Below are positions 39,045-54,513 of a stretch of 64,000 bases of DNA, in pieces. How positions within the stretch are numbered: position 1 is the stretch's first letter; each line of letters starts with the position of its first letter. Where the stretch lies: positions 94,182-158,181 of the forward strand of contig JBEPZV010000002.1 in NCBI GenBank assembly GCA_041640655.1. Direction: 5' to 3'. Origin of the DNA: a bacterium (GTDB lineage: Bacteria; Acidobacteriota; Blastocatellia; HR10). The translations under genes were made by a program, and so were the position numbers. The notes under the pieces were generated by a model. That model searched no databases and was not told the DNA's origin. It saw only the letters and a list, made by a program, of their open reading frames with translations.

Positions 39045-40325
39045 TTAATCATCCTCGGGAAGCTGAGGAAGATGATACTCATTGAGATTTTTCAAGCGAT
39101 CCTGAACTAGTTTCGACAAAAAGTCTTCCACCACGACATCTCGGAGCTTCTGAAAGGCTTCTTGACCCACCGGTTGGAAACCATGCGCCAAGGGCGAGAT
39201 GTTGCGGCATTCAAGATAGGGCTTCAGCCGAGATTTAGATTCTCGATACAGGTTGAGAAAATGTTGCCCTAGCTCGTCTCCAAGATCAGCGAGGAGCTCG
39301 TAGCCATGGAGCATACCTACCTTGAGGCGCCCGTCAGGCCCCACACGGGATTCCCATTTGGGCCGCACGGCTTCTGGGATAACCCCCAAACAGACGTTGT
39401 CACTTCGAATGCCCTTGTCGTGGAGGCGCCGTTGGGCGATATACTCCATCAAACGATAGAGGAGGGCCACGGCCACATCATATCTATGCTCCTTCGCTCG
39501 CCGATCCGCATTCGCCAGGATGTCTAAGGAGATTGCCTCGTTTAACGGTAAGCCGCACCTGCAGCTCTCACTTTTACACCGACTATTCCAGATCCCATGG
39601 ACGATGGGGCTAGCCCTTTTAAGTTCGTTTTCAAGCCCTAAATCCTGTACGATGTCCTCGAAGTCCTTAAGCACCTGGCGAAGGCCCTGAGCTGCATCTT
39701 CGTAGTGAAGCACGTCCCAGGCTTCGCAGGCCTTCGCCAGTTGCTCTACAAAATTCAACCGTCTTTTGTGTTCTTCTCTGACTATACGCCACTGAAGGTC
39801 CTCGATGCGATTCAGAACGCTCGCAAAGTGGCCCGCATTGAAAAGTTGGACCAATGTCTTCCAATGTCGCCGGAACAGGAGATTTGATGGCGGGAAGCTC
39901 AATAGGCGCTCGGTGCCTGACTTGACCTGACCCCGTTCGTCCCGCTCCCCCTCAATATAACTAACGCCAGCCAATTCGAGATTGATGGCCACATAGTCCA
40001 CAGCGGCTGACATCGCTTTGGTGCCTCGCGTGTAGTCAACATAAACCTGATTAGGTTGAAACCCTCGATCCCGGAATAAAACCCGACGAATGACCTTCTC
40101 GTATTGTAATGCTAGCTCTTGAACATCATTGATCTCTTGAAACTCTTCGATCTTGTAGCGAGACTCAGGGAGGGATTGGGTTTGAACGACCTTATCAACG
40201 TTGCTTCGGCTCTGAGGCGTACAGAGAAAAAGAACGAAGTCTGGATTATGCTGGTCGGTGGCAAATACCAGCGAGCGATCTACATCCTTACCAACCCCAA
40301 CTGTCAGAACTAATGCTTTACTCAT
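39045..40325 (-). CDS. CARF-HEPN protein (Csm6/Csx1 class; resembles the TIGR02710-type family)
   Basis: 426 aa from the ATG at 40325, with GGAGG 11 nt upstream. N-terminal CARF signatures (ALVLTVGVGKD, VDYTRGTKAMSAA). C-terminal R-x6-H HEPN motif (ECRNISPLAHG). Visibly lower GC than the flanks (one 60-nt line counted at 38%). Confidence 0.75.
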   Translation of the reverse strand: MSKALVLTVGVGKDVDRSLVFATDQHNPDFVLFLCTPQSRSNVDKVVQTQSLPESRYKIEEFQEINDVQELALQYEKVIRRVLFRDRGFQPNQVYVDYTRGTKAMSAAVDYVAINLELAGVSYIEGERDERGQVKSGTERLLSFPPSNLLFRRHWKTLVQLFNAGHFASVLNRIEDLQWRIVREEHKRRLNFVEQLAKACEAWDVLHYEDAAQGLRQVLKDFEDIVQDLGLENELKRASPIVHGIWNSRCKSESCRCGLPLNEAISLDILANADRRAKEHRYDVAVALLYRLMEYIAQRRLHDKGIRSDNVCLGVIPEAVRPKWESRVGPDGRLKVGMLHGYELLADLGDELGQHFLNLYRESKSRLKPYLECRNISPLAHGFQPVGQEAFQKLRDVVVEDFLSKLVQDRLKNLNEYHLPQLPEDD

Positions 40326-40359
40326 AGTAGCTGGTCCCTCCGCAAAATAAGAAGAGCGA

Positions 40360-41358
40360 TCATCGAACTTCCTCCACAATCCAGCGCTCGACTTCTTGGC
40401 GGGCGCGCTCAAGTTGTCCGGGAGTTTGCGCAGTGGTCGTGAGCCGAAAGCCGATTCCCCGAACCCTCCGCCCCGGCAAATAGAGAACGAGCGCCTTCGG
40501 AGCTTCTGCCCTCACCCTGGGCTGCCCTTCCCGCCAGCCGATGTCCTCGATGCGCTCTACAAACAGAAAACGGTTGGCTAAACGGTCTGCCCACTTTCTG
40601 GTTTCCTCGGCTTCCTTAGGCTCTTTTCGTGCCAGGCTCTTCTCGCATTCGCCAGCCCGGGGTTCGGGCAGGGCCTCGACGCTCTCCAGGACCCGCAAGA
40701 CCATCCGCCCCAGATCGGTCGGTCCACTAGCCGTGAGCAGTCCGTTCTGTTCGAGAAGTCCTTTGACCTCGGGACGCACCGAGCTGCCTTTCAGCCCCGC
40801 GATGATGTCCCCTAACAGCGGGAAAAGCCCAATGAAGGGCAGATTCACCAGCTTGATCTGGTCGACGGGCGGATGAAGTGCCCGCTCTTGCTCTTCTTTG
40901 CTCTTGTTCCGGAGTTTCGAAATGTGCCCTTCCTCCTCCAGCACAGGGTCATCCACAAGCACATGGAAAAGGCGCCTGGCACCATAAAACTGTACTGCCA
41001 GCGTCAGGAGTGCCGACATGGCCTTGCGTCCGCCGGCGATGGAGGCGTAGACCTCCCAGCCCTTCTTGCGGTATTCCCTCAGGACGGCGCAGGCTTGATT
41101 CATGAACTCCAAGGCGGCTGTATCGGAGTCTACATCGTAGAAGGCTTCCAGGATGGGGGGCTCCAGAAGCGTTACCTTGCCATCGTAGTAATCCGGCAGA
41201 TGCTCTCTCAAAAGACTCAGTGCATCCCGGGCATCGGTGTCTTGAGTCGTCAGAATGACGACATAGTCTATATGCACGCCGTCTGCCCGGAGGCGGTCAA
41301 TGGCTTCCGTGACGACGGCGGGGCTCTCCCCCAGCGTGGCGAGGAGGACTTTCTTCAT
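40360..41358 (-). CDS. CARF-domain protein (NE0113/Csx14-like N-terminus) with wHTH-like middle and unassigned C-terminal domain
   Basis: 332 aa from the ATG at 41358. MKKVLLATLGESPAVVTEAIDRL and SIAGGRKAMSALL are CARF hallmarks. The segment LLEQNGLLTASGPTDLGRMVLRVLES looks like a winged helix. I could not assign the last ~100 aa (FLFVERIEDIGWREGQPRVRAEAPKALVLYLPGRRVRGIGFRLTTT...). Confidence 0.7.
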   Translation of the reverse strand: MKKVLLATLGESPAVVTEAIDRLRADGVHIDYVVILTTQDTDARDALSLLREHLPDYYDGKVTLLEPPILEAFYDVDSDTAALEFMNQACAVLREYRKKGWEVYASIAGGRKAMSALLTLAVQFYGARRLFHVLVDDPVLEEEGHISKLRNKSKEEQERALHPPVDQIKLVNLPFIGLFPLLGDIIAGLKGSSVRPEVKGLLEQNGLLTASGPTDLGRMVLRVLESVEALPEPRAGECEKSLARKEPKEAEETRKWADRLANRFLFVERIEDIGWREGQPRVRAEAPKALVLYLPGRRVRGIGFRLTTTAQTPGQLERARQEVERWIVEEVR

Positions 41359-41671
41359 GGCGGCTCCCTCTCCTTTCGGCAAACCACACAAGGAAGCGGC
41401 TGGTGTACCCGAGCACCTCGGTCACATCTTCTCTCGACAGCGGGGACAGGCGCGAGCGCCATTCCTGCATCACAATAGCAATTGTGCGCGCTGCCCGTTG
41501 AGGATCGGAGCGAAGTGCCGGAGAACTCGCCATCGAATGGGCAAGCTGAATTGCCTTGTCCAACCCTTGGCGCGCAGCATACTGTGCCCACCGCTCCCAC
41601 TCCGTCCGCCGCAGACCCCCTAACCGCTCGGCAAGCTGACGTGCCAGTTCGACTTTCTCATCCGTGGTCAT
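41297..41671 (-). CDS. Small helical hypothetical protein (124 aa), coupled to the last III-D RAMP gene
   Basis: The ATG at 41671 overlaps the TGA of the upstream gene by 1 nt. Helical-looking sequence (MTTDEKVELARQLAERLGGLRRTEWERWAQYAARQGLDKAIQLAHS...). The 3-prime end overlaps the next gene by 62 nt. Confidence 0.45.
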   Translation of the reverse strand: MTTDEKVELARQLAERLGGLRRTEWERWAQYAARQGLDKAIQLAHSMASSPALRSDPQRAARTIAIVMQEWRSRLSPLSREDVTEVLGYTSRFLVWFAERRGSRHEESPPRHAGGEPRRRHGSH

Positions 41672-42663
41672 CAGTACACCTCCCGGGGACACCGTTCATC
41701 TTTCGACTCAAAACCCGCTTTCAGCGCATTCCACGACGCCTTATGCAGAAGTCCGCTATCTTGACACGCCTGGAGGTACCGGGAAATGAGCCGAAGCACC
41801 TCTTTGCCTTGCACTACCTGGGGATTCAGTAAGCCTTTCACATTCCCGCCCCAGAACCGCATCCTCACCGGACGAAATTCCACTGAGCCAAAGCACCGGG
41901 GCTTGGCGCCGCCCAGTTTGGGAGAAAAGGCAATCTGGACCGACCCGTCTGCCAGCTCCCATCCGAGTGCATGCAGGAGTAACCCCAACTCCGCTTCGCT
42001 CAGGTTCTCAAACAGGAGAGCACCGCGAAATTTCGCCTCCCTCTGCACAGCCTCTACAAAGCGAAAGTTTTGCTGAGGAATAGAGTTCCCCACGGGCTGA
42101 AAGGTCTTGCGCTCATAGAAACGGCGCCGGTTCGGGTCAAAGCGCTTGGGCTCCCAGAGCTCGCCGATTTTCTCCACCTTAGGCTGCGTCTCTCCCTGCA
42201 CCAGGAAATCGGTGAAATGCACTCGCCCTCGATAGCCGGTCGTCCCAAACAGCCGGCACGCTGGGCAGAGCGGGCTTCTCTCGTCGCGAAAGCGGCAGGG
42301 CTGATGCTGGCTTGAGCTAACGCGCTCCCGTGGACGCCGAATCTGTGATACGCACGAATTCGAGATCGCCTCCACGATCGCCCGGATAGCGCCTTTGAGG
42401 CTGGTGCCCGGCACGCAGAGCTGCCCGTTCCGACGGTAGAAGGTGTACCACACATCGGGGCGCCGATTCCCGTGGTTCTGGTCGAACTCATACGCCCCGG
42501 AGCCTACGAAGAGGTATTCCGAGACGACCGTAAAGGTAAGCTCAAGCCGTCCAGTAAGCCCTGTAAATCTTTCGTGGGTTGTGACCTGCTGGCGCACCGG
42601 CGCCTCAGACGGGATCGGCACCAGCACAAACGGCTTAGGCTCAGCGTTCGGATTCCTGGGCAT
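41671..42663 (-). CDS. RAMP-superfamily Cas7-like protein (type III-D terminal Cas7/Csm5-like position)
   Basis: 330 aa. VPGTSLKGAIRAIVEA, CPACRLFG and G-rich loop KLGGAKPRCFG. Confidence 0.75.
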   Translation of the reverse strand: MPRNPNAEPKPFVLVPIPSEAPVRQQVTTHERFTGLTGRLELTFTVVSEYLFVGSGAYEFDQNHGNRRPDVWYTFYRRNGQLCVPGTSLKGAIRAIVEAISNSCVSQIRRPRERVSSSQHQPCRFRDERSPLCPACRLFGTTGYRGRVHFTDFLVQGETQPKVEKIGELWEPKRFDPNRRRFYERKTFQPVGNSIPQQNFRFVEAVQREAKFRGALLFENLSEAELGLLLHALGWELADGSVQIAFSPKLGGAKPRCFGSVEFRPVRMRFWGGNVKGLLNPQVVQGKEVLRLISRYLQACQDSGLLHKASWNALKAGFESKDERCPREVY

Positions 42664-43102
42664 CGCTTCTTACCTCCCGTGGACTGACAAAGGTTGCGAC
42701 CTTGTCCCGATAAAAGACCCGACATATCAGGCGAGCTTCCCGAGCGTTGACGACAGGGTAGACTTCAAACTGCGGGGCAAAGCGCTTGTCTTCCAGGTTG
42801 ACCAATTGGCTTGTACACTCCACGACCTCCCACTCTCCCGGGACCGGCCTGAGCGCATCAGGCAGATCCCGGCGCTCCGCATCGCTCAGGACCCAGACCC
42901 GATAGAGCCCCTCGGCTGCCTTCTCCCAGCGGATCTCTACCTCGTGGTTGAAGGCACACCCAGCATCCCGGAGTTCCACGCTGTTCGGAAAATCAAGCTG
43001 CGCAAGCTCCCAGCTCAGGAGCACCCGCCCAGATAGCCGCTCGATGAGCTGCACGAGCGCTTCTGCGCCGAGTTCGCCCGCATAGACCCAGCCCCGCATC
43101 AT
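42641..43102 (-). CDS. Small type III-D accessory protein, Csx19/all1473-like by position and size (not verified by sequence)
   Basis: 153 aa. ATGA overlap with the upstream cas7. Occupies the slot that Csx19 holds in the canonical III-D gene order. Confidence 0.4.
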   Translation of the reverse strand: MMRGWVYAGELGAEALVQLIERLSGRVLLSWELAQLDFPNSVELRDAGCAFNHEVEIRWEKAAEGLYRVWVLSDAERRDLPDALRPVPGEWEVVECTSQLVNLEDKRFAPQFEVYPVVNAREARLICRVFYRDKVATFVSPREVRSDAQESER

Positions 43103-43983
43103 ACCGTCTCCAGAATCTGCGTGAGAGATTCCACCGCCTTGTCTGCTACTCTCTTCCAGGCTTCCCGGTCGTAGGTGCGCCGGAGGAAGACTGCAAGGTC
43201 AGTCTCGGCGCTCTCGGGAAGGTCTTCCAGGCGATCGGAAGCCTGAAGGCCGTAGGCCTTGCGTTCTTCCTCACTGACAAAGGCGCCCACGCCCCAGATC
43301 GCATTGGGAGAAAGCCCCGGCTTTTTGGCCAGCTCTACCGTGGCGTTCTCAACGCTCATCGAGACTTCACCAAAGCCCCGGTTCTTGCCAAAGCCCAGTT
43401 TCACAAGCCCGTCGTTGATCGCCTGAAGCGTCAGCGCCAGAAGCCCCAGCTGCCAGACCTCGAAGTTCTCCAGCACCAGCGCGGTCCGGAAGCGCCCCTG
43501 CACCAGCACCTCGATGTCAAAAGGGCCCACGGCTACGGCATTCGTCAGCCGGGAGATCGCCACGCCGTAGCGGGTTTCGGTCTTGACCGCACCCTCGGGG
43601 AAGGCGTCCGTAAAGGAGAGCCGACCCTTCAGGCGGGTATTGCCATAGATTCTGCAGGCGCGGCAGGATTTCTTGTAGACCGTCGCCGGATCTTTTTCAC
43701 TTTCCAATCTACGCCCGCAGTAGTCCGGGTTAGAGGGAAAGGGCTCAGGGCAGGCTCCATCCTCCCTCACGGTCCGCAGCACCTTTTCCGTGAAGCTTCG
43801 GAACGTGCCCTTAAGCGAAGAGCCGGGGATAAAGACTATCTCACCCTCGGACGTCCACGTGCGCACAAACTGCATATCGGGAAGCGAGGGATTGGGCGAA
43901 GCCAGTCCCGACTTGATGAGAAGGGGTGCACGAGGCTCAATCACAAGATCCAGCTTCAGGGCGTTCCAGCGGCGCTTATGCAT
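43099..43983 (-). CDS. cas7: Cas7-family RAMP (Csm3/Cmr4-like), type III
   Basis: 294 aa. IPGSSLKGTFRSFTEKVLR, CRACRIYGNT and G-rich loop KLGFGKNRGFGEV. Confidence 0.85.
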   Translation of the reverse strand: MHKRRWNALKLDLVIEPRAPLLIKSGLASPNPSLPDMQFVRTWTSEGEIVFIPGSSLKGTFRSFTEKVLRTVREDGACPEPFPSNPDYCGRRLESEKDPATVYKKSCRACRIYGNTRLKGRLSFTDAFPEGAVKTETRYGVAISRLTNAVAVGPFDIEVLVQGRFRTALVLENFEVWQLGLLALTLQAINDGLVKLGFGKNRGFGEVSMSVENATVELAKKPGLSPNAIWGVGAFVSEEERKAYGLQASDRLEDLPESAETDLAVFLRRTYDREAWKRVADKAVESLTQILETV

Positions 43984-44875
43984 GGCTTCCTCCCTCCTTC
44001 AGGGCTTGTACAAGTCCCTGCAGAAGCTCCGAATGCGAAACGGCGGGAGGCTGACCCGCACCCGTCAGGTAGTCCAGCAGATTTTCTCTGCCGATTTTCC
44101 GAATGGTGAGTTCAACCAGTTCGCCCCAGCCGGGACCGCGGGTGGTCTTGCCGCCCACGGGCAGTTCGCCCTTACGCATCGCTTCCAGCGCCAGAAGCAG
44201 GAGCCCCACTTCCCACTCCTCGGCGTTTTCCACCACGATGGTAATGCCGAACGCTGCTCCTGCAGGCACAGTCTCGAAGTCGTATTTGATGCCGGATTTC
44301 GCCGAGCCCAGGTCGCGGTCAATTCCCACGCCGTCGCGGATTTCTGTGAGGCGGAGTAGGCTCTCTTGATTGGACAACATAGCATCCCGGAACGAGACCC
44401 GGGATGCCAGCCAGGGCGAACCAAAAATCCGACAGGCAGTGCAGGAGTGCTGCCAGACCTGTTGCACGAGCTTTTCATCGTCCAACTGGTTATTCTGCGT
44501 TGCACGTTGGACCATACAGTTTTTGCACCTGCCGCAATCGGAACAGCAACTTCCTTTGCAGTCCTCACAGTGCTCACAGCATTTGGCGATGATGCAGCGA
44601 TTCTTCTCATCCAGCGGGTCGCACGCCCAGAGCCGTTCGCCCTGGTGGGTCTGCTTGAGTTCGTCCATCGTGCGCAGGAGCCGCTCTACGTGCGCGCGCA
44701 CCGCGCCCTTGAGGGAGGAACCCGGGATGAAGGGAACGCCTTCCGGGGTCTTGATGACGGGAAGGTCGGAGCCAGCGGGCATGAGCGATGCGCGGGCGCC
44801 CACGGAAAGGGCGGTCTTCATCCGCAGGGTTGCGGTAATGAGCCAACGGTTTTCGAAGTGCCAGAAGGAATGCAT
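43976..44875 (-). CDS. cas7: Cas7-family RAMP (Csm3-like) with Cys-rich insertion
   Basis: 299 aa. AGSDLPVIKTPEGVPFIPGSSLKGAVRAHVERLLR, CTACRIFGSP and VGGKTTRGPGWGEL. Residues 85-120 contain 11 Cys. Confidence 0.85.
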   Translation of the reverse strand: MHSFWHFENRWLITATLRMKTALSVGARASLMPAGSDLPVIKTPEGVPFIPGSSLKGAVRAHVERLLRTMDELKQTHQGERLWACDPLDEKNRCIIAKCCEHCEDCKGSCCSDCGRCKNCMVQRATQNNQLDDEKLVQQVWQHSCTACRIFGSPWLASRVSFRDAMLSNQESLLRLTEIRDGVGIDRDLGSAKSGIKYDFETVPAGAAFGITIVVENAEEWEVGLLLLALEAMRKGELPVGGKTTRGPGWGELVELTIRKIGRENLLDYLTGAGQPPAVSHSELLQGLVQALKEGGSHA

Positions 44876-44878
44876 GCT

Positions 44879-45715
44879 CTATCCCTCCCTCTGCTTTTCT
44901 AGCCACACGGCAACTTCTCGGGTAAAGGTGGAGAACTGTTCCGGGGCCTGCTGGAGGGCTTCGAGCACATGCCGAAGATCAATCTGCACGTATTCGTGCA
45001 CAAGCACGTTCCGAAACCCTCCCGCTCCGCGCAAAGAAGCATACAGGGATTGGGAGATCACACCCACCGAGCACAGCTCTCGCAAAAGCGCCTCGTACGT
45101 TTCCGGCTTCCTTCGGAAGTGCTCGGCGAGGATGTGGTCGGCAAGCTGGAAAATCAGCGTTAATCCCGCCAGGAGCCCTCGTTCCACTGTCCAGCGGAGG
45201 CTCAGATTGGTCTCTAGCTCCAGCAGGGTTACGGTTCGATATTTCGCCAGCTCCGCACTGACCTTCTGGAGCTCCTCCAGCGCTGCGGCGATGAAGGTGC
45301 GGTTCAGTCCCATGGCTTCCTCCTTTTTCCGATGCGTCCGGAGACCTTCCTCCCGGAGAAGTGCTCGCGTAGCGGCTTCCCAGCGCATTCGTTCGCCCGA
45401 CTCTCGCTCGTAGAGGCAGATTCCCGTGCGCATGATCTGCTCCCGCAGCCAGAGGGGCGCCTGGGGAAGCTCCACCAGGTCCAGTCGGTCGGTGCCGAGC
45501 GCTTCGGAAAGCTCTGCATAGAACGGCTGGAAGCGAAAGTCTGGGGCAGGCAAGAGCGCCAGGTCCACATCTTCTGCCTCCTCCGGCATACGGGCTGCCG
45601 AGCCGAACAGGTAGACAAGCCGCACCGGGTGACGGGCGAAGAGGGCATCGAGCTCCGAAAGCCGGAAACCTCTTCTCAAGGATGGCAGATGCGCGTATTT
45701 CTCTCGCACTCCCAT
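44879..45715 (-). CDS. Fused minimal nucleotidyltransferase (MNT/MntA-like) and HEPN (DUF86/HepT-like) protein
   Basis: 278-aa single ORF. N-terminal half has LVYLFGSAARMPEEAEDVDLALL (GS...DxD nucleotidyltransferase motif). C-terminal half has GGFRNVLVHEYVQID (R-x4-H HEPN motif). An internal ATG at 45313 is preceded by AAGGAGG. Confidence 0.8.
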   Translation of the reverse strand: MGVREKYAHLPSLRRGFRLSELDALFARHPVRLVYLFGSAARMPEEAEDVDLALLPAPDFRFQPFYAELSEALGTDRLDLVELPQAPLWLREQIMRTGICLYERESGERMRWEAATRALLREEGLRTHRKKEEAMGLNRTFIAAALEELQKVSAELAKYRTVTLLELETNLSLRWTVERGLLAGLTLIFQLADHILAEHFRRKPETYEALLRELCSVGVISQSLYASLRGAGGFRNVLVHEYVQIDLRHVLEALQQAPEQFSTFTREVAVWLEKQREG

Positions 45716-45720
45716 GCCAC

Positions 45721-46098
45721 TCAGCTCTTCCGCTCCGCTACGAACTTCCGCACCAGAAAACCCAGATAGAGGCGGATCAGCTCCATACGCACCCGGCGGA
45801 GCAGTTCAGGATTCCGTTGTGCAATCTGCTCCGCCCTCCGACTTAGCTCTCGCATATCCTCCAGAATCTGGCGCCCCACCTCAGCAGGGAGCTTTCTCCG
45901 CCCCATCTGGTAGCCGATGAAGTTTTCCAGCGCCAACACGGAATCGGTAGCCGAGGCCAGATTTTGAAGGTTGCGCAGTTGGGATTCCTCAAGGTCTAGG
46001 CTCGCTGCACGGGTTCTTGTAATGCAGGACTCCGCCTTCTGCACGATGTCGTCGAGGCTGTGTTCAATCTGCTGCAAAACCTTTGCTTCGGTGCTCAT
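45721..46098 (-). CDS. cas11: Type III small subunit (Cas11/Csm2-like)
   Basis: 125 aa, all-helical and charged. ATGA overlap with the csx10-like gene. Canonical III-D position. Confidence 0.6.
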   Translation of the reverse strand: MSTEAKVLQQIEHSLDDIVQKAESCITRTRAASLDLEESQLRNLQNLASATDSVLALENFIGYQMGRRKLPAEVGRQILEDMRELSRRAEQIAQRNPELLRRVRMELIRLYLGFLVRKFVAERKS

Positions 46099-47294
46099 AC
46101 CGGCATCACCTCCATGTGGAACGGATGGCAGATGAGGATTTCGCCCAGCCCTTCGTCGGTACGGATTCCCACACCTCGGGCTTCACGGTCTTCGAGAAAC
46201 GGCAAAAGCGCCTGCGGGGAGGCGTCCACCCGGAACACATACACACTCCCCATCGCCGCACCCAGATGGGTGGGCTTAGGCAGCCCCCAGGCCGTGGAGA
46301 AGCCTCCCACGAAGGTCGGCTGCGTCGCCCAAAAGACGGGCTCCAGTATCTGCCCGTTGAAGGGCAGAAAGAGCTTCAGTGTAGGCAGACCGTCCGGATC
46401 ACGAAGAACGGCGGGCACCAGCAGGTCCACGCTGAAGTAGGTTCCAGATGGCGCATCTGGCACGGAACTGCCCACCTGCCGGGCAAGTGCGGCAAGGTCG
46501 CGCCAGACCTCGCGGAGCTTGTCATTGAAGATCCTGAGGCGCTCTGCAATCGGGTCCACGCGGGGTTCGGTTTCCCGCAGACGGGCGGCGCCGAAGCCCC
46601 GCGTGGTCAGGGCGCCAACGCCTGCCTCTTCCACCGCCTGCTTGAGTTCTTCGATGACCGTTTCGTCCTCGGTCCAGATCCTCCCCACGAAACACCCCTG
46701 CGGTTGCATCCCGATCAACCGATAGAGCATTCCTTCCTGCGCGGCACGGCGGTGACGGCTGAGCGCTACCTTCGTTTGCACACCTTGAGACATAGGGACT
46801 TTCATCCACCCCTCAGGCAAGCTTGCATAAAATCCACCGACCTTCTCCATCCGTCCGCCGCAGCGCTTATCCTCCGCCATCTGCGCCGTACAGCGAAGGA
46901 GCAGCGGAACAGGGAAGCGAGCCCCCAAACGTTTCAACTCTGAGTATGCCACAGCAACGAGGAGACTATCACGGATACCATGTCCTACGTCCTTCCGCCT
47001 CTCTCGGAGAACGTTACGAAAGCCACCGTGAAGCTTACACTCCAGGGCTGTCATCGGAAATGGCAAAGCGTACACGCTTTCTGAAGGCGTTGGAAAGAAA
47101 TTACCAAACCGAATTTGTTGCACGGCAGGCAGAATTTCATTTGTGTTTCCCTGCAGTTTAAGCCACTCCGCCAACGCCCCCCGGAGCACGCTGCCAGGGA
47201 TATAACCTCGCGTGCCAAGGTAGTCGCCTTTGGGCTTCACATCGCCCGTAAGAATCGGTTCTTCAGGAATCACTACAATGAAATACTCCCTCAT
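46095..47294 (-). CDS. csx10: Csx10-like RAMP (Cas5-group subunit of type III-D)
   Basis: 399 aa. YIPGSVLRGALAEWL and G-rich loops GALTTRGFGAARL and GVGIRTDEGLGEILI. Follows cas10-cas7 as in III-D loci. Confidence 0.6.
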   Translation of the reverse strand: MREYFIVVIPEEPILTGDVKPKGDYLGTRGYIPGSVLRGALAEWLKLQGNTNEILPAVQQIRFGNFFPTPSESVYALPFPMTALECKLHGGFRNVLRERRKDVGHGIRDSLLVAVAYSELKRLGARFPVPLLLRCTAQMAEDKRCGGRMEKVGGFYASLPEGWMKVPMSQGVQTKVALSRHRRAAQEGMLYRLIGMQPQGCFVGRIWTEDETVIEELKQAVEEAGVGALTTRGFGAARLRETEPRVDPIAERLRIFNDKLREVWRDLAALARQVGSSVPDAPSGTYFSVDLLVPAVLRDPDGLPTLKLFLPFNGQILEPVFWATQPTFVGGFSTAWGLPKPTHLGAAMGSVYVFRVDASPQALLPFLEDREARGVGIRTDEGLGEILICHPFHMEVMPV

Positions 47295-47941
47295 GATGCA
47301 GCCCCATCAGGTCGTTCAACAAATGCCCTGACCTTGTGAGCGAGGTCATCCTTAGAGATATTCTGTCCGTTCACGCTTGCTTGAAAGTCTTCCAACTCTA
47401 CCCAGCCTAGACCTCGGGAGCGTGCCGCGCCAATAGCATAGCCCATATTGGCTCCCAGCCAAAGGAGCGCCGCCGCTGCTCTGGCTTCGCTCTCAGAATC
47501 GAAAATTCCCTGAACCTTGCCCTCCAATGTCGGATACCATGCCACCTCTGTGGAGAACAATCGCTCTTCATAAGCGGTCTTGCGACGCCGGCTCAAAGAA
47601 ACACTCATCTTCACATCCCGCAAAGCACCCTGAAACTTAGCATCGTGGAACCGGAGAGGCGACCTATCCCGCGGGTGTCCGAAGACCTCGCACACGGGAC
47701 AGAGCCCACAGATGGTGGATACTGTAGAAGCGTCGCATACACGCACACCGAGACCCCGCAAGGCGCGTTCTGCTCCCTCTCGCAGCCAACCTTTGAGCGT
47801 GGTGGCGGGGATGACAGGATGCTTGCCGTCATGCCAATCCAGCACCAGCGCCTTGTCGGTCCACAACTTTGCTCGCTCGCCGGTCACATGTACGCCCGAC
47901 GCGAACCGGAAGCGAAGAAGAACTTCAAGCCGACTCCTCAT
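47291..47941 (-). CDS. cas7: Cas7-family RAMP (Csm3-like), type III
   Basis: 216 aa from the ATG at 47941 (ATGA overlap with the cas10 stop). IPATTLKGWLREGAERAL, CPVCEVFGHP and GAARSRGLGWVEL. Confidence 0.8.
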   Translation of the reverse strand: MRSRLEVLLRFRFASGVHVTGERAKLWTDKALVLDWHDGKHPVIPATTLKGWLREGAERALRGLGVRVCDASTVSTICGLCPVCEVFGHPRDRSPLRFHDAKFQGALRDVKMSVSLSRRRKTAYEERLFSTEVAWYPTLEGKVQGIFDSESEARAAAALLWLGANMGYAIGAARSRGLGWVELEDFQASVNGQNISKDDLAHKVRAFVERPDGAAS

Positions 47942-49671
47942 AGACGAACCTCCAAGACGGGATACTTGTGTGCCTCCAGCTCGATTAGTTCCAGCACATC
48001 CAGAAGAGCCGTCTGCCAGCCGCCAGCATTTCTCCGCCAAAACCAGAATCCCTCAGGAGCTGGTGTTCCACCGTCCACTAACTCCCCTAACTCCTCATAA
48101 GCAGCTCGCAGGTCCTCTTTATGCTCTTTGGAGCGCGCCACCTGATACAACGCATAATTGAGAGACACATGGACGCCCTTTTCCAACGATTCGGCCAAGG
48201 TTCTACGCTGAGCGGCTGGGCTATGGGATAACTTCCTCGCCAGCGCTGACAGTCGCTCTGCTTGTGCTACCGTATAAGGGCGAGCGGTCAGATGGCGCGC
48301 AGCCTCGTCACGCGCATATAGAGCCTTCAGTATAACCTTCGCCTCTTCGGATATAACCGGCGCTCGCAACCACAGATGGCAGAGCGTTCCGGTTCGTTTC
48401 TCTCGCGCCAATCTCTTCGCTTCCTTGAGCAACCCTTCCGCCAGATCGAACAGAAAGCGAATGGGATATTTCACATCGGCGATCGCCAAACCAGCGGACG
48501 TGGTCAGACGAGTTCCTCTGCCGCCAAATGCAGCTTGGAGTTTTTGAATCTCAGTATGGCTCTCAAACCCCCTGAGCAGATTCACCGCCAACGCCCAACC
48601 AGCACTTGCGGGCACGATGACCACGACATCATCTCCTCCGAGGGCGATGATCTCAAACGGCAGCGTGTTCCGTGCGAGCCGCTCTGATCCGAACGTTTCC
48701 CACAGGGCCGCAAAGAGCGCCTCCTCCGTCGCTGTGCTCAAAGCTGTTGAAATATCGCGGTACTCCTGCAACGATTTCGCTCGTTGCAGCAGATCGCCCA
48801 TGTTATTTCCGTCGGCGTAGAGCAGGGCAATTCTTCCTTCTCCGGCTGCCAGGGCATCCAAATCTTGTGGGGTTTTCCCAATGATTTCCACACCTTTTTT
48901 CTCCCGCACCCACTTGCGGAATCTCAGCAAAAACTCTCGTTTCCCCCCTCGGCCTTTCCGGCGCTTCATCGAACACAAGCCGCAGAGCCACTCTGCTGGT
49001 TCTCGCGCCTCATCACGCTCCTCTGCCGCCCGTTTCCCGCACGATTGGCACCGCTGGTGAATGGGCAAAGTTTCGTAGAAAGGCGCGCGTTCTTTCCGGC
49101 GCTTTGCCTCCTGAAGCTTCCCCGTGAGTTGAGCAACGAGTTCACCGAAGTTCTTTCGATCCGCGCGGTTCGTGACGATCGCATCAAAATGGCTAAAGAG
49201 CAAATCTTGGGCAATCCCGCGCCCCTGGAGTTGGTTGAGGGTTCGCTCATCATGAGGAAAGATGCCTCGCTCCAAATCAGCACGATCCATCGGATCCGAT
49301 GCGACGACAGTGATGGTTGCAGTTTTCGTGCGTTCAAGGTAAAGCCGTTCGATTTCCCGCTTCAACCTGTCCGCCTCACCCGCGGGCACTACGGCAAGGA
49401 AACCGCCACCTCCACAATAAATCAGATCCTTCTCTGGAGCATTTTGTGGGAAAAGCTCGCGAATCTCTTCTTCCAGCTCCGTTAAGATTTCGCTCCCGCC
49501 ACGGATCTCCGGCAAAGCGCTTGTCTCATACACGAACGTCTTGATCGCGTCCACGTCGCCGAGCAGGAGGCGAACAGGCGTAACTTCTTTGCCATTTTCA
49601 GTTTGTGCGCTCAATTTATTCTCCTCGTCTCCACATCGCGCGTTTCGTTCGCGGGGATCAAAGTGTGCCAA
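47938..49671 (-). CDS. cas10: Cas10 large subunit without HD domain (type III-D style), cyclase GGDD intact
   Basis: Two Palm-like modules (LLLGDVDAIKTFVYETS...YCGGGGFLAVVP; IALLYADGNNMGDLL...IIALGGDDVVVIVPA) and a Zn ribbon (CQSCGKRAAE...CGLCSMKR). No H..HD N-terminal domain. The start is uncertain: the TTG at 49614 has GAGGAG 6 nt upstream and may be the real start. Confidence 0.85.
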   Translation of the reverse strand: MAHFDPRERNARCGDEENKLSAQTENGKEVTPVRLLLGDVDAIKTFVYETSALPEIRGGSEILTELEEEIRELFPQNAPEKDLIYCGGGGFLAVVPAGEADRLKREIERLYLERTKTATITVVASDPMDRADLERGIFPHDERTLNQLQGRGIAQDLLFSHFDAIVTNRADRKNFGELVAQLTGKLQEAKRRKERAPFYETLPIHQRCQSCGKRAAEERDEAREPAEWLCGLCSMKRRKGRGGKREFLLRFRKWVREKKGVEIIGKTPQDLDALAAGEGRIALLYADGNNMGDLLQRAKSLQEYRDISTALSTATEEALFAALWETFGSERLARNTLPFEIIALGGDDVVVIVPASAGWALAVNLLRGFESHTEIQKLQAAFGGRGTRLTTSAGLAIADVKYPIRFLFDLAEGLLKEAKRLAREKRTGTLCHLWLRAPVISEEAKVILKALYARDEAARHLTARPYTVAQAERLSALARKLSHSPAAQRRTLAESLEKGVHVSLNYALYQVARSKEHKEDLRAAYEELGELVDGGTPAPEGFWFWRRNAGGWQTALLDVLELIELEAHKYPVLEVRL

Positions 49672-49958
49672 TAATATACCACGAAGCTAAGCAAAGAGTA
49701 ATAAGACCAGAGATCCCTCACCTTTAGAAAGCCGGAGCTTCGGTAGAGCCATCGCTCAGGGAGCCCTTGAAAATCAGGGCAGTCCTGAAAGCGCTTGCGC
49801 GTTGAGCACTCGACTTCGCGCCTTTTGGGCTCAAGATGGGGAATTCCTTTTTCCACTGCCAAGACGCAGAGGATCGAGTAGCGCGATTTGACCAATCGCG
49901 CCACTTTAACTGCACGCCAAACCGTATGCTCAATCCACGCATCGCTCAAAAAATACAC
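49611..49958 (-). CDS. Candidate unannotated small ORF (115 aa) with C-terminal hydrophobic/aromatic helix
   Basis: GTG at 49958 with AGGAGG exactly 6 nt upstream (inside the cas5 3-prime end). The stop TGA overlaps the SD-supported TTG start of cas10 (TTGA). Sequence ...RKRFQDCPDFQGLPERWLYRSSGFLKVRDLWSYYSLLSFVVYYWHTLIP... No homology is recognisable by eye. Confidence 0.35.
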   Translation of the reverse strand: MYFLSDAWIEHTVWRAVKVARLVKSRYSILCVLAVEKGIPHLEPKRREVECSTRKRFQDCPDFQGLPERWLYRSSGFLKVRDLWSYYSLLSFVVYYWHTLIPANETRDVETRRIN

Positions 49959-50694
49959 ATTGCACCTCCTTCTTCCTAAGCACGAAGATCGGGATTTTAC
50001 CTCCGGCACATCGCACCTTCAGCGGTTTCGCTTCGCGCGAGAGATAGGCCAGATAGAGATGGCGAAAGCGACGATCCGGGAAGACTTCGTTGGGAACTCG
50101 CTCTTCGCGCAAGATGGCTTCGGACTCGGAAAGATCAATCGCCTTCGCTGTCGCCTCATCGAGAGGGAGGACCGAACAGATATCGGCTTGCTCTACCTCA
50201 ATCAGTTCTGCAACATCTTCTCCTTCCCACTCGATGTCGGCCAAAAAACCCATGATTCCCATGCAAGGCGGATACACCCATCGTTTCTGCTGGAGACGCT
50301 CTCTCAGTTCGTTCATCAGCTGCTCATCCCGATGCCAAAAGACAATCCGATAGTGAGGTCGGCGAATGACCTCCAGGTTCTCCTGAAATGACTCGATCAT
50401 CTTGGCAGGGCGGAATCTCCCTTTATTCAGGATTGGTGGACCTTGGCGCCACTTTTCAGGAAGACGATCCTTCACGATCGATCGCAGCGGACAGACGGCG
50501 ATACGCGTCGCGTCTGCCGGAAAGCGTTCCGCCAGCTTGCTACGTGGGACGCCCAAGATCGCGCCGACCATCCCGATCACGGATGTGCGCGGCGGAAAAC
50601 TATAGGTCAGGGCCGAGGTAGTCGTGAACCACTTGCGCCAGTGCCCAAATGTGCCACGAATGGTGAAAAGATAGACTGGTATCCCATCGCCCAT
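49930..50694 (-). CDS. cas5: Cas5 (type I-B)
   Basis: 254 aa. VYLFTIRGTFGHWRKWFTTTSALTYSFPPRTSVIGMVGAILG is a typical Cas5 N-terminus. Follows cas7. Confidence 0.85.
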   Translation of the reverse strand: MGDGIPVYLFTIRGTFGHWRKWFTTTSALTYSFPPRTSVIGMVGAILGVPRSKLAERFPADATRIAVCPLRSIVKDRLPEKWRQGPPILNKGRFRPAKMIESFQENLEVIRRPHYRIVFWHRDEQLMNELRERLQQKRWVYPPCMGIMGFLADIEWEGEDVAELIEVEQADICSVLPLDEATAKAIDLSESEAILREERVPNEVFPDRRFRHLYLAYLSREAKPLKVRCAGGKIPIFVLRKKEVQCVFFERCVD

Positions 50695-50710
50695 AGTACC
50701 TCCATCACGC

Positions 50711-51736
50711 TTAGAATTCTCGGATGGTCAAGGCATCAGACTTGTCGCCCAGGAGCTCCTTTAACTTTTCGCTCAGCTCCTCAGGCGAGAGCCTCAGCCC
50801 GGCATCTATCCAGCATTCGATTCGGGCCAAATTCTCGCGCCGCCGTTGAACGCACTCCAGCACGCCGTCTATTTTCACTTTGTAGTCTTTAGGAGAGCGG
50901 ATGCGCCGCTCGTCTCCCAGATTGTGCTCCAGCTCGACGCGGTCGAGGAAATAGCCACATTGAACTTCGTTCCGGAAGTCGAAGCGCAAAAGAAGACGCG
51001 GATGGTGGAAAGCCTTCGAGCGCGAATGCAGCGCCAACGTGCCGTGCCACAGCGCTTCCATCAGCAGTTTTACATCATCCTCGGTGAGGCCCGTTTCCTT
51101 TGCCAGGTTCTCGTTGATCACACCGTAGAAGCCGATGAGCGCGTAGGGGACGATGAACTCGCGCCGAAACGTCTTCTGTCGGGCTGTTTCTTTGGAAGCG
51201 AAGCCGCCGGTGCCCGCGATTTCGATGATCTCAGCAGCATGGAGGCTCTGTCCCGGATTGAACTGCACGGCTCCGGTCAGTTGAATGCCTCCGCTCTCGC
51301 CCTTTTCCTCGGTCTTCGCTGAGGCTTCGCCCCCACCCTTCTTGCCCTTCGTTGTTTTCTTCTCAGTGATCGGCACGAGAGCGCCGAACAGCCGCACATC
51401 CACGCACTTCTTGATGAGCTGCTCTTTAGCCTTTTCCACTTCGCCGGCTTTCGGCAAGCTTCCGAAAATCTCTTCGTAGCGTCGCTCCGCCGTTAGAGCC
51501 TTCTCATCAGCGACGCGAACGAAGATTTCCAGGCCATCGTCCCGATCGCGGCGCTTGTAGCGGAGGATATAATCCCGAATGGTCCGTTTGAGGCGCACAT
51601 CGGTGACATCAATCCGACCCGTTTCGGGGTCCTGTCTTGGGCGGTTTTCGAACGGATCGCCGTTCGGATTGCAGCGAAACACGTCGTAGAGAAAGAGGAT
51701 CTCAGACCGATAGGGATAGGTTGAACTTTTTTCCAT
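50711..51736 (-). CDS. cas7: Cas7 (type I-B, Csh2/Csd2-like)
   Basis: 341 aa. LFLYDVFRCNPNGDPFENRPRQDPETGRIDVTDVRLKRTIRDYI (NPNGDP signature). Confidence 0.9.
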   Translation of the reverse strand: MEKSSTYPYRSEILFLYDVFRCNPNGDPFENRPRQDPETGRIDVTDVRLKRTIRDYILRYKRRDRDDGLEIFVRVADEKALTAERRYEEIFGSLPKAGEVEKAKEQLIKKCVDVRLFGALVPITEKKTTKGKKGGGEASAKTEEKGESGGIQLTGAVQFNPGQSLHAAEIIEIAGTGGFASKETARQKTFRREFIVPYALIGFYGVINENLAKETGLTEDDVKLLMEALWHGTLALHSRSKAFHHPRLLLRFDFRNEVQCGYFLDRVELEHNLGDERRIRSPKDYKVKIDGVLECVQRRRENLARIECWIDAGLRLSPEELSEKLKELLGDKSDALTIREF

Positions 51737-51753
51737 GACGCACCTCCTTGGGT

Positions 51754-53766
51754 TTAGGATTCACCTTCTATTTCCTCTTCGGGAGAAGCTTCCTCGGCCT
51801 CTTCGCCCGGTGGCGTCTCTAACGCCTTACGGACGGCATCCACCGTCGCCCACCAGAGCCCCCAGCCCAGACAGAAGCAAAACCGAGCCTCCTCATCCGA
51901 GAGCTCGCCGTCCTGCGAAGCGAAATCGCACGCCGCCTGTTGAATCGCCTGAATCGCCTGGGTGTTGGCGTCTAATTGGCGAAGCTTCAGCATGAGTTCA
52001 GGGAAGATCTTCACCATGATCTCTTCCCGCGAAACCGCAAGCCCTCGCAGGCGGCTGACGATGGGCATCTCGCCGGCCTTGCTCTGTCTCTCGCCTCGCT
52101 GCTTGCTTTCCACCTGCCCAAAGAGAACACCAATGAGGAACGCCGCACGCTTTGCGGGGGAATCAAGGAGAAGCCTTGGCTTGAAGAAATTCTCCCAAAA
52201 CTCCGGCGTCACCCCGGACTTTACTGGTTGCGTTGTGGTTTGCGTTGCCATATTTGCACCTCCTTCGAGTTCCGTTGAACGATAAATGAGTGTCCATATT
52301 GCCCAGATGAGCCTTGCACGCTCGGCGAGAGCGCTCTGCACGGTTCGCTTTTGGTCCTTGCTGCTGATCGTCTCTTGATATGTGGCCCGCAAGAGGCTGT
52401 CAGCATCCTGCCAGAACTCGCGCTCCTGTGGGCGTTGATCCGTCAGGATCGCCGCCACAAGATGCATCGGAGTGAACTTGAGCGCGCCTTGCGTTTCATC
52501 TCGACCTCGGCGGGGCCATTTCCAGGCCCGCCCCACGAACTCGAAATCCGCCCGCAGTTGTGAAGATAATCGGCTCCCCTCTTCATCAAGAGCCCCTTCC
52601 CGTAAAAGCTCGCGTAGCCTTCCCAACCTCCGTTTTGATCTCCGCAGGTTAGTGGGCAGTATCTCAGAGATGGTGTAGAGGAACATGAACTTCTGACCCG
52701 ACTGGTAGAAAACGAGCGAAGCCGAACGAAAAGGAGGCCTGTCCTTAAATCGCCCCTCGGACTCCTCGACGAGTCCTTCAAACAGATTCGGAAAAGAATC
52801 TCCGCCTTCGTTCTCGGCGTCACCTGCGCTTTTCGGCTTCGCTTTCTTTCCCTTGTCTTGGATTGGAAATTCCTCTTGTGGCACGACCTTATCCTTCGTG
52901 CGCTCGCGCCATTCCCAGAGGAAGTGGACGAAGGAACCTTCGATCTCCGCCGCATCAGGCTCCAGCTCGGGCACAAGATAAGTAGGTGTGCCGGCAACTT
53001 GCGTGCGCAGGTTCTCTTCAAGGTAGCTCTCAGCTACATAGAGCCATTTCGCGCATTCCTCACAAACGGGAGCGTATTTCCAAAGGTTCACTTCGCGGCC
53101 CATCGGACTGAAGCCGAGCTTTTCTACAGTGAAGAAGCGGAAGGGAATAGTTGAGCATACCTCGCCCTTCTTGCCACAGACAGCACAACGACCCTTACCT
53201 TTAGCTTGAGCCCTGCGCTCACCGAAGATTTTTCTCTTAATGAACCTCTCACAGAGTTTTTCTTGATCCCCTGGCATTTTTCCATTCCACATAACGCTCA
53301 GCAAGACGGAAGTTTCATCCCTCGTCGCCTCATCGAGCTTCTCTGATAAACCACTCTCGCTCCATTCTTTCAACTTCTGAGCGATATCATTGGGTAGCGA
53401 GGCGCTTATTTCTCTGAGTCCCGTTTGAATGATTTCCTGGCGGGTTTTCTTTGGTTTCGCACTGCTGCGCCCCTTGGAGCTTCGGTCTTCACGGAAGACC
53501 AAGAGCCATGATGGGCCTATGGCGTGCTTGCCCGTGGACAAAGCATAGAGATACTTATACCGCTCATCGTCCTTGTAATCTTCGAGGCGCACCTCTTGAT
53601 TTGTTACATCAACCACGGCCACCTTGGGGATGATTTTATCTTTGCCTTTTGTTCTGATGGCGCTCTCGCACAGGCGATGAAGGATAACTTGTTCCAGAGT
53701 CCAGCCGCGCTTTTTGCTTTCATAGCGGGCCATCTCTCGGGCGACTTGAACCAGTGTTGCGATCAT
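51754..53766 (-). CDS. cas8b: Cas8b-like large subunit (type I-B, TM1802-like)
   Basis: 670 aa between cas6 and cas7. Zn-ribbon-like CAVCGKKGEVCS ... PVCEECAKWL. Called mainly on size and position. Confidence 0.7.
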   Translation of the reverse strand: MIATLVQVAREMARYESKKRGWTLEQVILHRLCESAIRTKGKDKIIPKVAVVDVTNQEVRLEDYKDDERYKYLYALSTGKHAIGPSWLLVFREDRSSKGRSSAKPKKTRQEIIQTGLREISASLPNDIAQKLKEWSESGLSEKLDEATRDETSVLLSVMWNGKMPGDQEKLCERFIKRKIFGERRAQAKGKGRCAVCGKKGEVCSTIPFRFFTVEKLGFSPMGREVNLWKYAPVCEECAKWLYVAESYLEENLRTQVAGTPTYLVPELEPDAAEIEGSFVHFLWEWRERTKDKVVPQEEFPIQDKGKKAKPKSAGDAENEGGDSFPNLFEGLVEESEGRFKDRPPFRSASLVFYQSGQKFMFLYTISEILPTNLRRSKRRLGRLRELLREGALDEEGSRLSSQLRADFEFVGRAWKWPRRGRDETQGALKFTPMHLVAAILTDQRPQEREFWQDADSLLRATYQETISSKDQKRTVQSALAERARLIWAIWTLIYRSTELEGGANMATQTTTQPVKSGVTPEFWENFFKPRLLLDSPAKRAAFLIGVLFGQVESKQRGERQSKAGEMPIVSRLRGLAVSREEIMVKIFPELMLKLRQLDANTQAIQAIQQAACDFASQDGELSDEEARFCFCLGWGLWWATVDAVRKALETPPGEEAEEASPEEEIEGES

Positions 53767-53769
53767 GGC

Positions 53770-54513
53770 TTACCCTCCGGGCTCTATCATACCAAAGCCC
53801 TGGCTATTTTTAATTCCAAGCCCAACGTCGTAAGCGAAGCGGATCAGTCCTTCATCCCCCCACATCTGAAGGTTCAGGTACCATGCTCGCACGGCCGTAT
53901 CAAAGACGCGAACCAGTTTTTGCTTGGGATTCCAAACACGAATACTGAGCTCCCCTCCGTGCCATTCCCGCCCATGAAAAGCTTGCCACTTGTTGATGAG
54001 ATTACGCTGAAGCGCTTCGACGAACTCAGGCTGATCGGGACGGAGGTAAATAGGATGTCGCGAGCAATTCGGATCTCCTATCGAAGCGGCGATAGGAGAA
54101 GCTGTCCGAAAAACCAAGCCACTTCCAAGTTCGGGGGGTTCGATGCGAACTATGTCCACAACCTCGATAAGAGTGCCAAAGATATGGAGCTTTCCTGCTT
54201 GCCGCTCTATGCCTTTTATGAAGGTATCCGTGAATTGCTGGTCTGGACTACTGATCTGCCACGTCATCCACTGAACATCAGTCAGACCGTGCGAGGACAG
54301 ACTCCAGCGCGTGGGGGTTAAATCTGAGTAGACAAAGAGACGGTATATGCGATTCTTCCAGGAAAAACCCTGATCATGGAGCTTGGTGCCGTAATCTGAA
54401 TCGGCGGTATTCAAGGTCATGTAAACCACCTTAGTCAGGGCAGCGCGGTAATCCCAAGGGATAGTGATAGGTTTATGAGCTTCAAGTAACAATCGCAATC
54501 TCATCCCGATCAC
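53770..54513 (-). CDS. cas6: Cas6 endoribonuclease (copy adjacent to the I-B effector genes)
   Basis: About 245 aa (likely the ATG at 54504). RAMP fold signature with C-terminal G-rich loop (GLGIKNSQGFGMI). Lower GC, like the downstream cas genes. Confidence 0.85.
   Translation of the reverse strand: MIGMRLRLLLEAHKPITIPWDYRAALTKVVYMTLNTADSDYGTKLHDQGFSWKNRIYRLFVYSDLTPTRWSLSSHGLTDVQWMTWQISSPDQQFTDTFIKGIERQAGKLHIFGTLIEVVDIVRIEPPELGSGLVFRTASPIAASIGDPNCSRHPIYLRPDQPEFVEALQRNLINKWQAFHGREWHGGELSIRVWNPKQKLVRVFDTAVRAWYLNLQMWGDEGLIRFAYDVGLGIKNSQGFGMIEPGG

Follow-up and report, generated by a model that had tools for sequence, protein, structure and literature searches.

What is a gene of the toxin-antitoxin (TA) type doing among the subunit genes of a CRISPR-Cas effector operon? 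This question is raised by a 64,000-nucleotide (nt) stretch of DNA from a bacterium of the Blastocatellia (Acidobacteriota; GTDB lineage HR10), taken from GenBank assembly GCA_041640655.1 (contig JBEPZV010000002.1, positions 94,182 to 158,181 of the forward strand) and referred to below as the window. Within the type III-D operon of the window, an open reading frame (ORF) of 278 amino acids (aa) stands between cas11 and the cas7 gene csx7, and it joins a minimal nucleotidyltransferase (MNT) domain to a HepT-type HEPN ribonuclease (RNase) domain in a single polypeptide. We found that this fused gene is optional cargo in a fixed cas11/csx7 slot of a III-D lineage in hot-spring bacteria. The reading that we favor, with a probability of roughly 0.6, is that the fusion is a single-chain type VII TA derivative of the kind represented by FhepTA of Shewanella oneidensis, carried by the cas operon as a module for addiction or abortive infection and not serving as an effector subunit. 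Comparison among loci favors an optional, self-contained module and speaks against an integral part in the effector complex. The fused gene and its two enzymatic halves lie as follows, in positions of the window.

44879..45715, minus strand: full-length MNT-HepT fusion ORF, ATG start, 278 aa, stop codon included
45368..45646, minus strand: MNT (MntA-like minimal nucleotidyltransferase) domain, aa 24-116, by Pfam, NCBIfam, and profile and fold matches in the Protein Data Bank (PDB)
45563..45604, minus strand: catalytic nucleotidyltransferase motif G38-S39-x9-D49-V-D51, read directly in the sequence
44915..45280, minus strand: HepT-type HEPN RNase domain, aa 146-267, by PF01934, HepT_toxin, and Foldseek
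44990..45013, minus strand: RNase motif R235-N-V-L-V-H240-E-Y242 (Rx4H plus Tyr), read directly in the sequence

The domain content of the ORF was determined by profile searches. Pfam placed PF18765 (Polbeta/MNT) at aa 24-105 (2e-11) and PF01934 (HepT-like) at aa 154-267 (2e-16), each match exceeding its curated cut-off; in NCBIfam, HepT_toxin (NF047751) scored 73 bits against a cut-off of 60, and MntA_antitoxin covered aa 28-116 with 59 bits, 1 bit under its curated cut-off of 60. Only the MNT and HepT domains were detected, and no CARF, SAVED, or other sensor of cyclic oligoadenylate (cOA) was found in the fusion by Pfam, NCBIfam, or PADLOC, which ruled out a cOA-sensing accessory effector. 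An earlier note, made from the letters alone, had described a 278-aa ORF lying 5 nt after cas11 and 3 nt before the next cas7 gene, with in-frame MNT and HEPN halves and intact catalytic signatures, and had proposed a Pfam search and an AlphaFold prediction. The same coordinates and spacing were recovered here, the Pfam matches support both halves, and the signatures GS-x9-DxD and RNVLVHEY are read in the sequence and conserved among homologues: in an alignment of 42 homologues, G38, S39, D49, D51, N236, H240, and Y242 were invariant, and R235 occurred in at least 90%.

Both halves also match known folds, as modeled by AlphaFold2 (AF2) with a mean predicted local distance difference test score (pLDDT) of 83. 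In a Foldseek comparison, the HEPN half superposed on the HEPN toxin 7AE9_C with a template modeling (TM) score of 0.94 and a root mean square deviation of 1.5 Å, and the N-terminal half superposed on MntA chains, with profile and fold matches to MntA 5YEP_A, 6M6U_A, and 7BXO. When the alignment profile was compared with PDB sequences, it matched HEPN toxins and MNT antitoxins (7AE2-7AE9 and 5YEP/6M6U/7BXO), proteins only ~20-25% identical to the fusion. Y242 aligned with the Tyr of RLVHEY in 7AE9, the residue type that is oligoAMPylated in characterized HepT and in FhepTA. The relative placement of the two domains in the model is uncertain (predicted TM score, pTM, 0.52), and residues 128-135 between them had a pLDDT below 50.

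An ordinary two-gene mntA-hepT pair might look fused through an indel error, and related two-gene pairs do have their junction at the same position. A search of ~5.8 billion proteins, however, returned 105 homologous clusters, nearly all of them 260-307 aa long with both Pfam domains, from Armatimonadota, Blastocatellia, Chloroflexota (Thermoflexus, Anaerolineae), Fimbriimonadales, Bryobacterales, and others. An uninterrupted ORF of ~280 aa was present in ~95 independent clusters, drawn from assemblies of NCBI, JGI, ENA, and Logan, and 25 single-ORF copies were found in species-representative genomes. A sequencing or frameshift artefact was thus ruled out and retains next to no probability.

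The fused gene was then considered in its operon, the relevant features of which are given here.

45721..46098, minus strand: cas11 (III-D small subunit), upstream flank, PADLOC Csm2 'CAS-III-D effector_SS' 4e-29
43976..44875, minus strand: csx7 (Cas7), downstream flank, NCBIfam TIGR02581 9e-68, Shine-Dalgarno (SD) sequence of -11.9 kcal/mol
41671..49671, minus strand: III-D effector operon, in the order cas10 (no HD), cas7, csx10, cas11, [MNT-HepT], csx7, cas7, csx19, cas7

The III-D gene order that had been read from the letters agrees with the profile matches, and related operons are collinear with it: besides Csx7, the operon encodes Csx10 (TIGR02674, 8.6e-82, NCBIfam), Csx19 (4e-44, PADLOC), further repeat-associated mysterious proteins (RAMPs), and a palm-domain Cas10 (Pfam, NCBIfam). 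The stop codon of cas11, which encodes a 125-aa product, occupies 45721-45723 and is separated by 5 nt from the start of the fusion; 3 nt separate the fusion stop from the csx7 ATG (44875), and the csx7 SD (GGGAGGGA) is located within the 3' end of the fusion ORF. In some relatives, the fusion stop overlaps the csx7 start as ATGA.

The same cas11/MNT-HepT/csx7 slot was found in collinear operons of decreasing relatedness, with identities of 93% (P0001), 83% (P0003), 81% (P0006), 72% (P0008), and 65% (P0015), and at least one of these contigs came from a hot-spring metagenome. It also occurred in two species-representative metagenome-assembled genomes (MAGs), from an Armatimonadota (L003) and a Kapaibacterium (L005), whose copies are 52% identical, and it was occupied down to a fusion identity of 40-52%. 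Filled slots were recorded in the window, L081, L082, L090, L091, L092, L107, L109, L110, L115, L118, L119, L121, L126, L003, and L005. To census the slot, metagenomes were probed with Csx7, the downstream protein, whose matches do not depend on the insert, and all window Cas proteins were then mapped onto the matches. Among 52 related III-D loci with a visible slot, 16 were filled, 1 was partial, and 35 were empty, with cas11 directly abutting csx7. In a tree of Csx10 plus Csx7, filled and empty states were interleaved: L107 is full and its sister L111 empty, L110 is full and L144 empty, and an empty clade is nested inside the filled clade of the window itself. The NE0113 CARF gene was present in loci both with and without the fusion, and other accessory genes likewise did not differ. 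Orthologous insertions, a search for which the earlier note had proposed, thus fill the same slot in relatives, and the collinear operons with an empty slot bear out its description of an extra ORF in a III-D backbone that is conserved in other respects.

These occupancy data bear directly on whether the protein is part of the complex. A structural or regulatory subunit, for example a nucleotidyltransferase modifying Cas proteins or crRNA, or a docked HEPN nuclease, would fit a gene that stands among subunit genes, between cas11 and cas7, and is translationally coupled to them. Yet the gene is missing from 35 of the 52 related and otherwise intact operons, so that it does not behave as a III-D core subunit, a role ruled out by this presence/absence polymorphism together with the remnants described below. 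In addition, the family lies mostly outside cas loci, a copy nested in the III-D clade (L001, below) is itself not in a cas locus, and the type III census and classification papers do not list the fusion. We consider a subunit role of any kind very improbable.

Several of the empty slots were longer than needed and still encoded pieces of the gene. The slot of L136, 156 nt long, reads '...NALAREYVAID...ILAALKRAPEVHCLFQAEVSAWLQQHK', a decayed HEPN C terminus in which the catalytic His has been replaced by Arg (blastx 4e-5). The first 17 codons (MSVRENYAALQSLPKKI) were left in L132, L133, and L135, with an in-frame stop in L135; an MNT fragment (DISLVALPDEGLPW..., E 0.006) was left in L124, L125, and L143, and only an N-terminal remnant in L144. 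In L145 (4388-4835), the MNT half is intact, HEPN residues ~135-270 are deleted, and the 3' end with the csx7 SD is kept; in its sister locus, L121, the fusion is intact. A deletion in L145 that joined the internal SD described below straight to the csx7 start was considered and ruled out by the alignment, which shows an internal HEPN deletion with the native 3' end retained. Just the last ~16 nt of the fusion gene, joined to the end of cas11, were kept in L096, L106, and L108, and the deletion alleles overall keep the final 16-30 nt; these last nucleotides survive deletion because they carry the csx7 SD. L106 additionally carries, at 12502-12894 and ~1.5 kb downstream of NE0113, an MNT-HepT-like gene with 63% identity over aa 1-124 that is cut by the end of the locus.

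The remnants and the empty slots together indicate repeated loss of a gene that the III-D operon can do without. Three remnant lineages (L145; L132/133/135; L124/125/143) keep the N-terminal or MNT piece without HEPN, the HEPN piece left in L136 has its catalytic His mutated, and L144 has only a short N-terminal piece; such an order of decay is the one expected for a TA unit.

Beyond the slot, the family occupies many other places. In the tree of fusion proteins, most slot occupants fall in one clade. Nested in this clade is L001, a copy of 79% identity from an Anaerolineae MAG, which is flanked by a CBS-domain gene and an N6/N4 DNA methyltransferase on a 7.5-kb contig that has no cas gene, and the slot occupants L003, L005, and L110 are grouped among copies of non-cas context. 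A Thermoflexus copy is located beside smpB and a separate NTP_transf_2/HEPN pair, a Fimbriimonadales copy among housekeeping genes, and a Bryobacterales copy (L089, 7244-9278) in the ATP synthase operon, where it separates atpB from atpE, an insertion that shows the module landing freely inside operons. In Thermoflexus japonica (L085, 6571-7480), the two-gene NTP_transf_2/HEPN pair is separated from the fused copy by smpB and stands two genes upstream of it. The many unrelated insertion contexts imply mobility of the family, whose fused gene is autonomous from cas context. Its distant relatives are ordinary two-gene mntA-hepT pairs whose stop and start codons overlap at the join point of the fusion; one such pair (L037) adjoins csm6. 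An origin from a phage or plasmid was rejected, given that no phage match was obtained and only two-gene pairs of 24-30% identity were found on haloarchaeal and cyanobacterial plasmids.

With one genome taken per species, 4 of the 25 single-ORF copies lay in or beside cas loci, which is far above the expectation for a random gene yet a minority: L003 and L005 are in the slot, L004 is between cas6 and a cas3 fragment/cas4/cas1, and L021 is near csm6 and cas1. L004 (7457-13294, a Blastocatellia MAG) is a reduced cas locus that consists of cas6 (75% identical to that of the window), a 563-aa ORF, MNT-HepT, a C-terminal cas3 fragment, cas4, and cas1, and the fused gene there persists although the neighboring effector genes are gone. 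The 563-aa ORF was considered as a diverged Cas10 or Cas8 and dismissed, having no similarity to either and no Pfam match.

Presence/absence polymorphism, remnants, and unrelated contexts are also what would be expected of a purely selfish hitch-hiker, that is, a mobile fused TA gene that landed once in a permissive slot and whose SD and ATG at the domain junction are an unused relic of an ancestral hepT gene. Evidence on selection bears on this account. Among pairs of slot copies, dN/dS (the ratio of nonsynonymous to synonymous substitution), calculated by the Nei-Gojobori method, was 0.10-0.16 over the full length of the gene; its MNT half gave 0.11-0.21, its HEPN half 0.06-0.13, and the linker 0.2-0.6. 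Both enzymatic halves are under purifying selection wherever the gene is retained, and this shows, against the hitch-hiker account, that the gene is maintained. Between the window and L081, the synonymous distance was 0.06 in the MNT half and 0.47 in the HEPN half, and this mosaic divergence suggests recombination near the domain junction.

The junction itself is the second place where the hitch-hiker account can be judged, and it carries the following elements.

45311..45334, minus strand: inter-domain linker, aa 128-135, ending in M135, predicted disordered (AF2), with faster dN/dS
45319..45325, minus strand: internal SD, AAGGAGG, with a 5-nt spacer to the ATG of M135
45311..45313, minus strand: internal ATG (M135), corresponding to the N terminus of stand-alone HepT toxins

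A strong ribosome-binding site plus ATG had been pointed out at the domain junction; both are present in the window and match genuine operon starts in strength, but they are not kept in all relatives. The SD/anti-SD duplex at the junction was calculated at -11.6 kcal/mol, compared with -11.7 to -13.6 kcal/mol at the true start sites of cas11, csx7, and two of the cas7 genes. The full-length fusion start reached only -3.5 kcal/mol and therefore probably depends on coupling to cas11. Across 39 fused genes, the codon in the M135 column was ATG in 26 and GTG in 6 (32/39 start-competent), all six Val codons in this column being GTG, and an SD of -10 kcal/mol or stronger preceded 49% of the junctions versus 1.4% of the remaining in-frame positions in these genes, although the 39 junctions are phylogenetically related and the counts overstate their independence. 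In the alignment with 7AE9, a stand-alone HEPN toxin, residue 3 of the toxin falls 2-3 residues past M135. Synonymous sites are saturated (dS > 1) between lineages that retain the SD and the start codon. This persistence in a fast-evolving linker suggests, as far as sequence conservation can tell, selection for a second product, free HepT, and we put a functional internal start at M135 at roughly even odds.

For the hitch-hiker account, therefore, the junction offers arguments in both directions. Two-gene relatives overlap stop and start at this point, so that a 1-nt indel would fuse the genes with SD and ATG kept; the ATG is lost in the nearest relatives; and FhepTA functions without an internal start. 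On the other side, the SD and a start-competent codon outlast saturated synonymous sites, and six of six Val codons at the M135 column are GTG. Taken with the purifying selection on both domains, this leaves a purely selfish passenger a possible but somewhat unlikely explanation.

Under the favored reading, in which the fusion is a single-chain type VII TA module carried by the cas operon, the mechanism can be sketched from homology. The MNT domain would use ATP to oligoAMPylate Tyr242 beside the Rx4H motif of its own HEPN RNase and would also prevent HEPN dimerization, by which the RNase would be held off. MNT loss through proteolysis, de-AMPylation, or ATP shortage would then release a non-specific RNase and arrest the cell. 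Judging from its context, the module would be co-expressed with the cas operon through co-transcription and translational coupling, and it may stabilize or back up the operon. If ribosomes also start at M135, free HepT would be produced and would be neutralized in trans by the MNT domain of the full-length protein; the M135 product and the full-length protein would in this way rebuild a two-component TA logic from one ORF.

Several points weigh against this reading. The gene has often been lost cleanly from III-D operons that are themselves intact, which speaks against strong addiction. The mechanism is drawn from homology with proteins that are ~20-25% identical, and the domain-to-domain arrangement in the AF2 model is uncertain at a pTM of 0.52, so that the model lends no support to a geometry for AMPylation in cis. 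At the junction, the nearest relatives, L081 and L109 (93-94% identity), have ATA and a weakened SD, AAGAGGA, and L126 and L110 have ATA and ACG, respectively; with the start codon lost in the nearest relatives, free HepT is therefore not essential, and the SD and ATG could be a slowly decaying relic of a two-gene ancestor. Finally, the return of copies down to 40-52% identity to one and the same slot could reflect a genuine functional tie with III-D.

Such a tie would make the fusion a functionally coupled accessory effector, recruited by the III-D lineage as a CARF-independent abortive-infection arm or fail-safe and triggered, for example, by a phage block of cas expression, by an anti-CRISPR disabling the complex, or by Cas10 draining ATP so that AMPylation fails. 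Consistent with this, the slot is shared by operons with no more than 55-65% identity between their Cas proteins, and the divergence of the fusion approximately parallels that of Cas (in L003, Cas 45-63% and fusion 52%). The gene is closely packed between its neighbors (gaps of 5 nt and 3 nt or, in relatives, an ATGA overlap with csx7), the fusion is under purifying selection, further copies occur in cas loci (L004, L021, and L106, with the two-gene L037 beside csm6), and neutralization is ATP dependent in characterized homologues. However, the protein has no sensor domain (CARF, SAVED, or other), two thirds of the related operons lack the gene and several hold it in decay, a 79%-identical copy (L001) lies outside any cas context, and accessory genes are the same in loci with or without the fusion, NE0113 CARF being present in both. 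We regard a coupled effector as unlikely. Its most elaborate form, a fail-safe co-opted by III-D in which one ORF yields two products and AMPylation fails upon cas shutdown or an ATP drain by Cas10, appears quite doubtful.

Some features of the surrounding locus deserve description in their own right. The window Cas10 (47938-49671, minus strand) lacks the HD domain and would be ~557 aa long if it starts at a TTG near 49613; this codon has GAGGAG as its SD, and a promoter-like stretch lies upstream. Cas10 is also HD-less in L003 and L136, and it is 731-757 aa long with an HD domain in L081, L082, L090, and L091; the presence of HD did not correlate with the insert, as HD-less and HD-containing Cas10 both accompany MNT-HepT. 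A 131-aa ORF at 41297-41692 (minus strand), directly after the last cas7 and overlapping the start of the NE0113 CARF gene, is kept in place in essentially all related III-D loci with 34-85% identity; it had no Pfam match and only weak, probably spurious PADLOC matches, and may be an unrecognized III-D component. The same locus encodes a CARF-HEPN RNase of the Csm6/Csx1 type at 39045-40412.

Farther away, a CRISPR array of ~16 kb (17454-33470), made up of ~240 units of ~66 bp with the 30-nt repeat GTTTCAATCCCACCTTGGTTCGATTAGCAC, adjoins cas1/cas4/cas3. A type I effector module (49930-56235, minus strand) encodes a cas8-like protein of 670 aa, a cas7/DevR-like protein of 341 aa, and a cas5 protein of 254 aa, and is accompanied by two cas6 genes directly upstream of the III-D operon. 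The type I module and the III-D operon seem to share one adaptation module and array. The junction between type I and III-D is the same in L136 as in the window.

What the fused gene means depends on which reading holds. If the fail-safe were true, a type VII TA switch would be tied to type III signaling and the operon would be self-protecting; a functional tie would more generally give a type III system with a sensor-less, ATP-gated RNase beside a cOA-gated one, and a module working with or protecting the III-D operon would be the protein-enzyme counterpart of the RNA-based CreTA safeguards. The conserved internal start, if used, would offer a simple example from nature in which a single ORF encodes both a toxin and the antitoxin tethered to it. 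Even a mere hitch-hiker would document a permissive III-D insertion slot, in which TA decay can be followed from the full gene to a toxin-deleted allele and on to fragments.

How does the window protein compare with known systems? The fusion to which the earlier note drew attention is real, but its architecture is neither unusual nor new. MNT and HEPN domains 'are often fused' (Makarova 2013), DUF86 HEPN is 'occasionally fused to MNT' (Anantharaman 2013), and a fused protein, FhepTA (SO_1440, 276 aa), has been characterized from the Shewanella oneidensis prophage CP4So (Yao et al., NAR 2026, PMC13000451). In FhepTA, the MNT domain self-oligoAMPylates Y240 in an ATP-dependent manner, apparently within one molecule, and blocks HEPN dimerization; the HEPN half alone is toxic, the isolated MNT half is Lon-labile, and two extra cysteines add redox control (PMC13000451). 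By length and motif positions, the window protein resembles FhepTA closely: each is a single chain (276 versus 278 aa) with an N-terminal MNT domain, a short linker, and a HEPN domain at its C terminus, the GS-x~10-DxD aspartates are D41/D43 versus D49/D51, and the tyrosine of RxxxxHxY is Y240 versus Y242. Both derive from mntA-hepT pairs, which differ from the fused form mainly at the junction. FhepTA reportedly has no ribosome-binding site and no ATG for its HEPN half, whereas the window family keeps a strong SD with ATG or GTG at the junction. The redox switch of FhepTA consists of C163 and C270 in HEPN, whereas the cysteines of the window protein are limited to C100 (in MNT) and C215, and no Cys column was conserved across the homologue alignment. 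FhepTA is found in prophages and genomic islands, and the window fusion inside a III-D cas operon.

The two-gene type VII HepT/MntA systems of Shewanella (SO_3166/SO_3165, PDB 5YEP/6M6U/7BXO) and Aphanizomenon (PDB 7AE2-7AE9) share with the window protein the same domains with MNT first, the motifs, and the target Tyr, but they are encoded by two genes instead of one uninterrupted ORF, and the identity to the solved proteins is ~20-25%. With the CreTA/CrePA elements (review PMC12737573), the analogy is one of role only: a TA element in a cas locus could make loss of the locus costly or trigger abortive infection. CreTA-type modules are small RNAs under the control of Cas effectors, whereas the window module is a protein enzyme pair with no evident Cas dependence and, unlike them, is often lost while the operon survives. 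The Csm6/Csx1 CARF-HEPN proteins are likewise HEPN RNases encoded with type III systems, and non-specific RNA cleavage is possible in principle for both; the window fusion differs in lacking a CARF/cOA sensor, in belonging to the HepT/DUF86 family of HEPN, and in being controlled by an attached nucleotidyltransferase.

No prior report of MNT-HEPN in III-D operons was found in the type III accessory-gene census, the 2025 CRISPR-Cas classification, the 2025 TA-CRISPR review, or keyword searches, whose incomplete coverage makes this absence of evidence only. The fused MNT-HEPN protein type is already known, and what appears to be unreported is the fixed yet dispensable slot in III-D operons, the series of decay alleles, and the comparative support for an internal start that FhepTA lacks.

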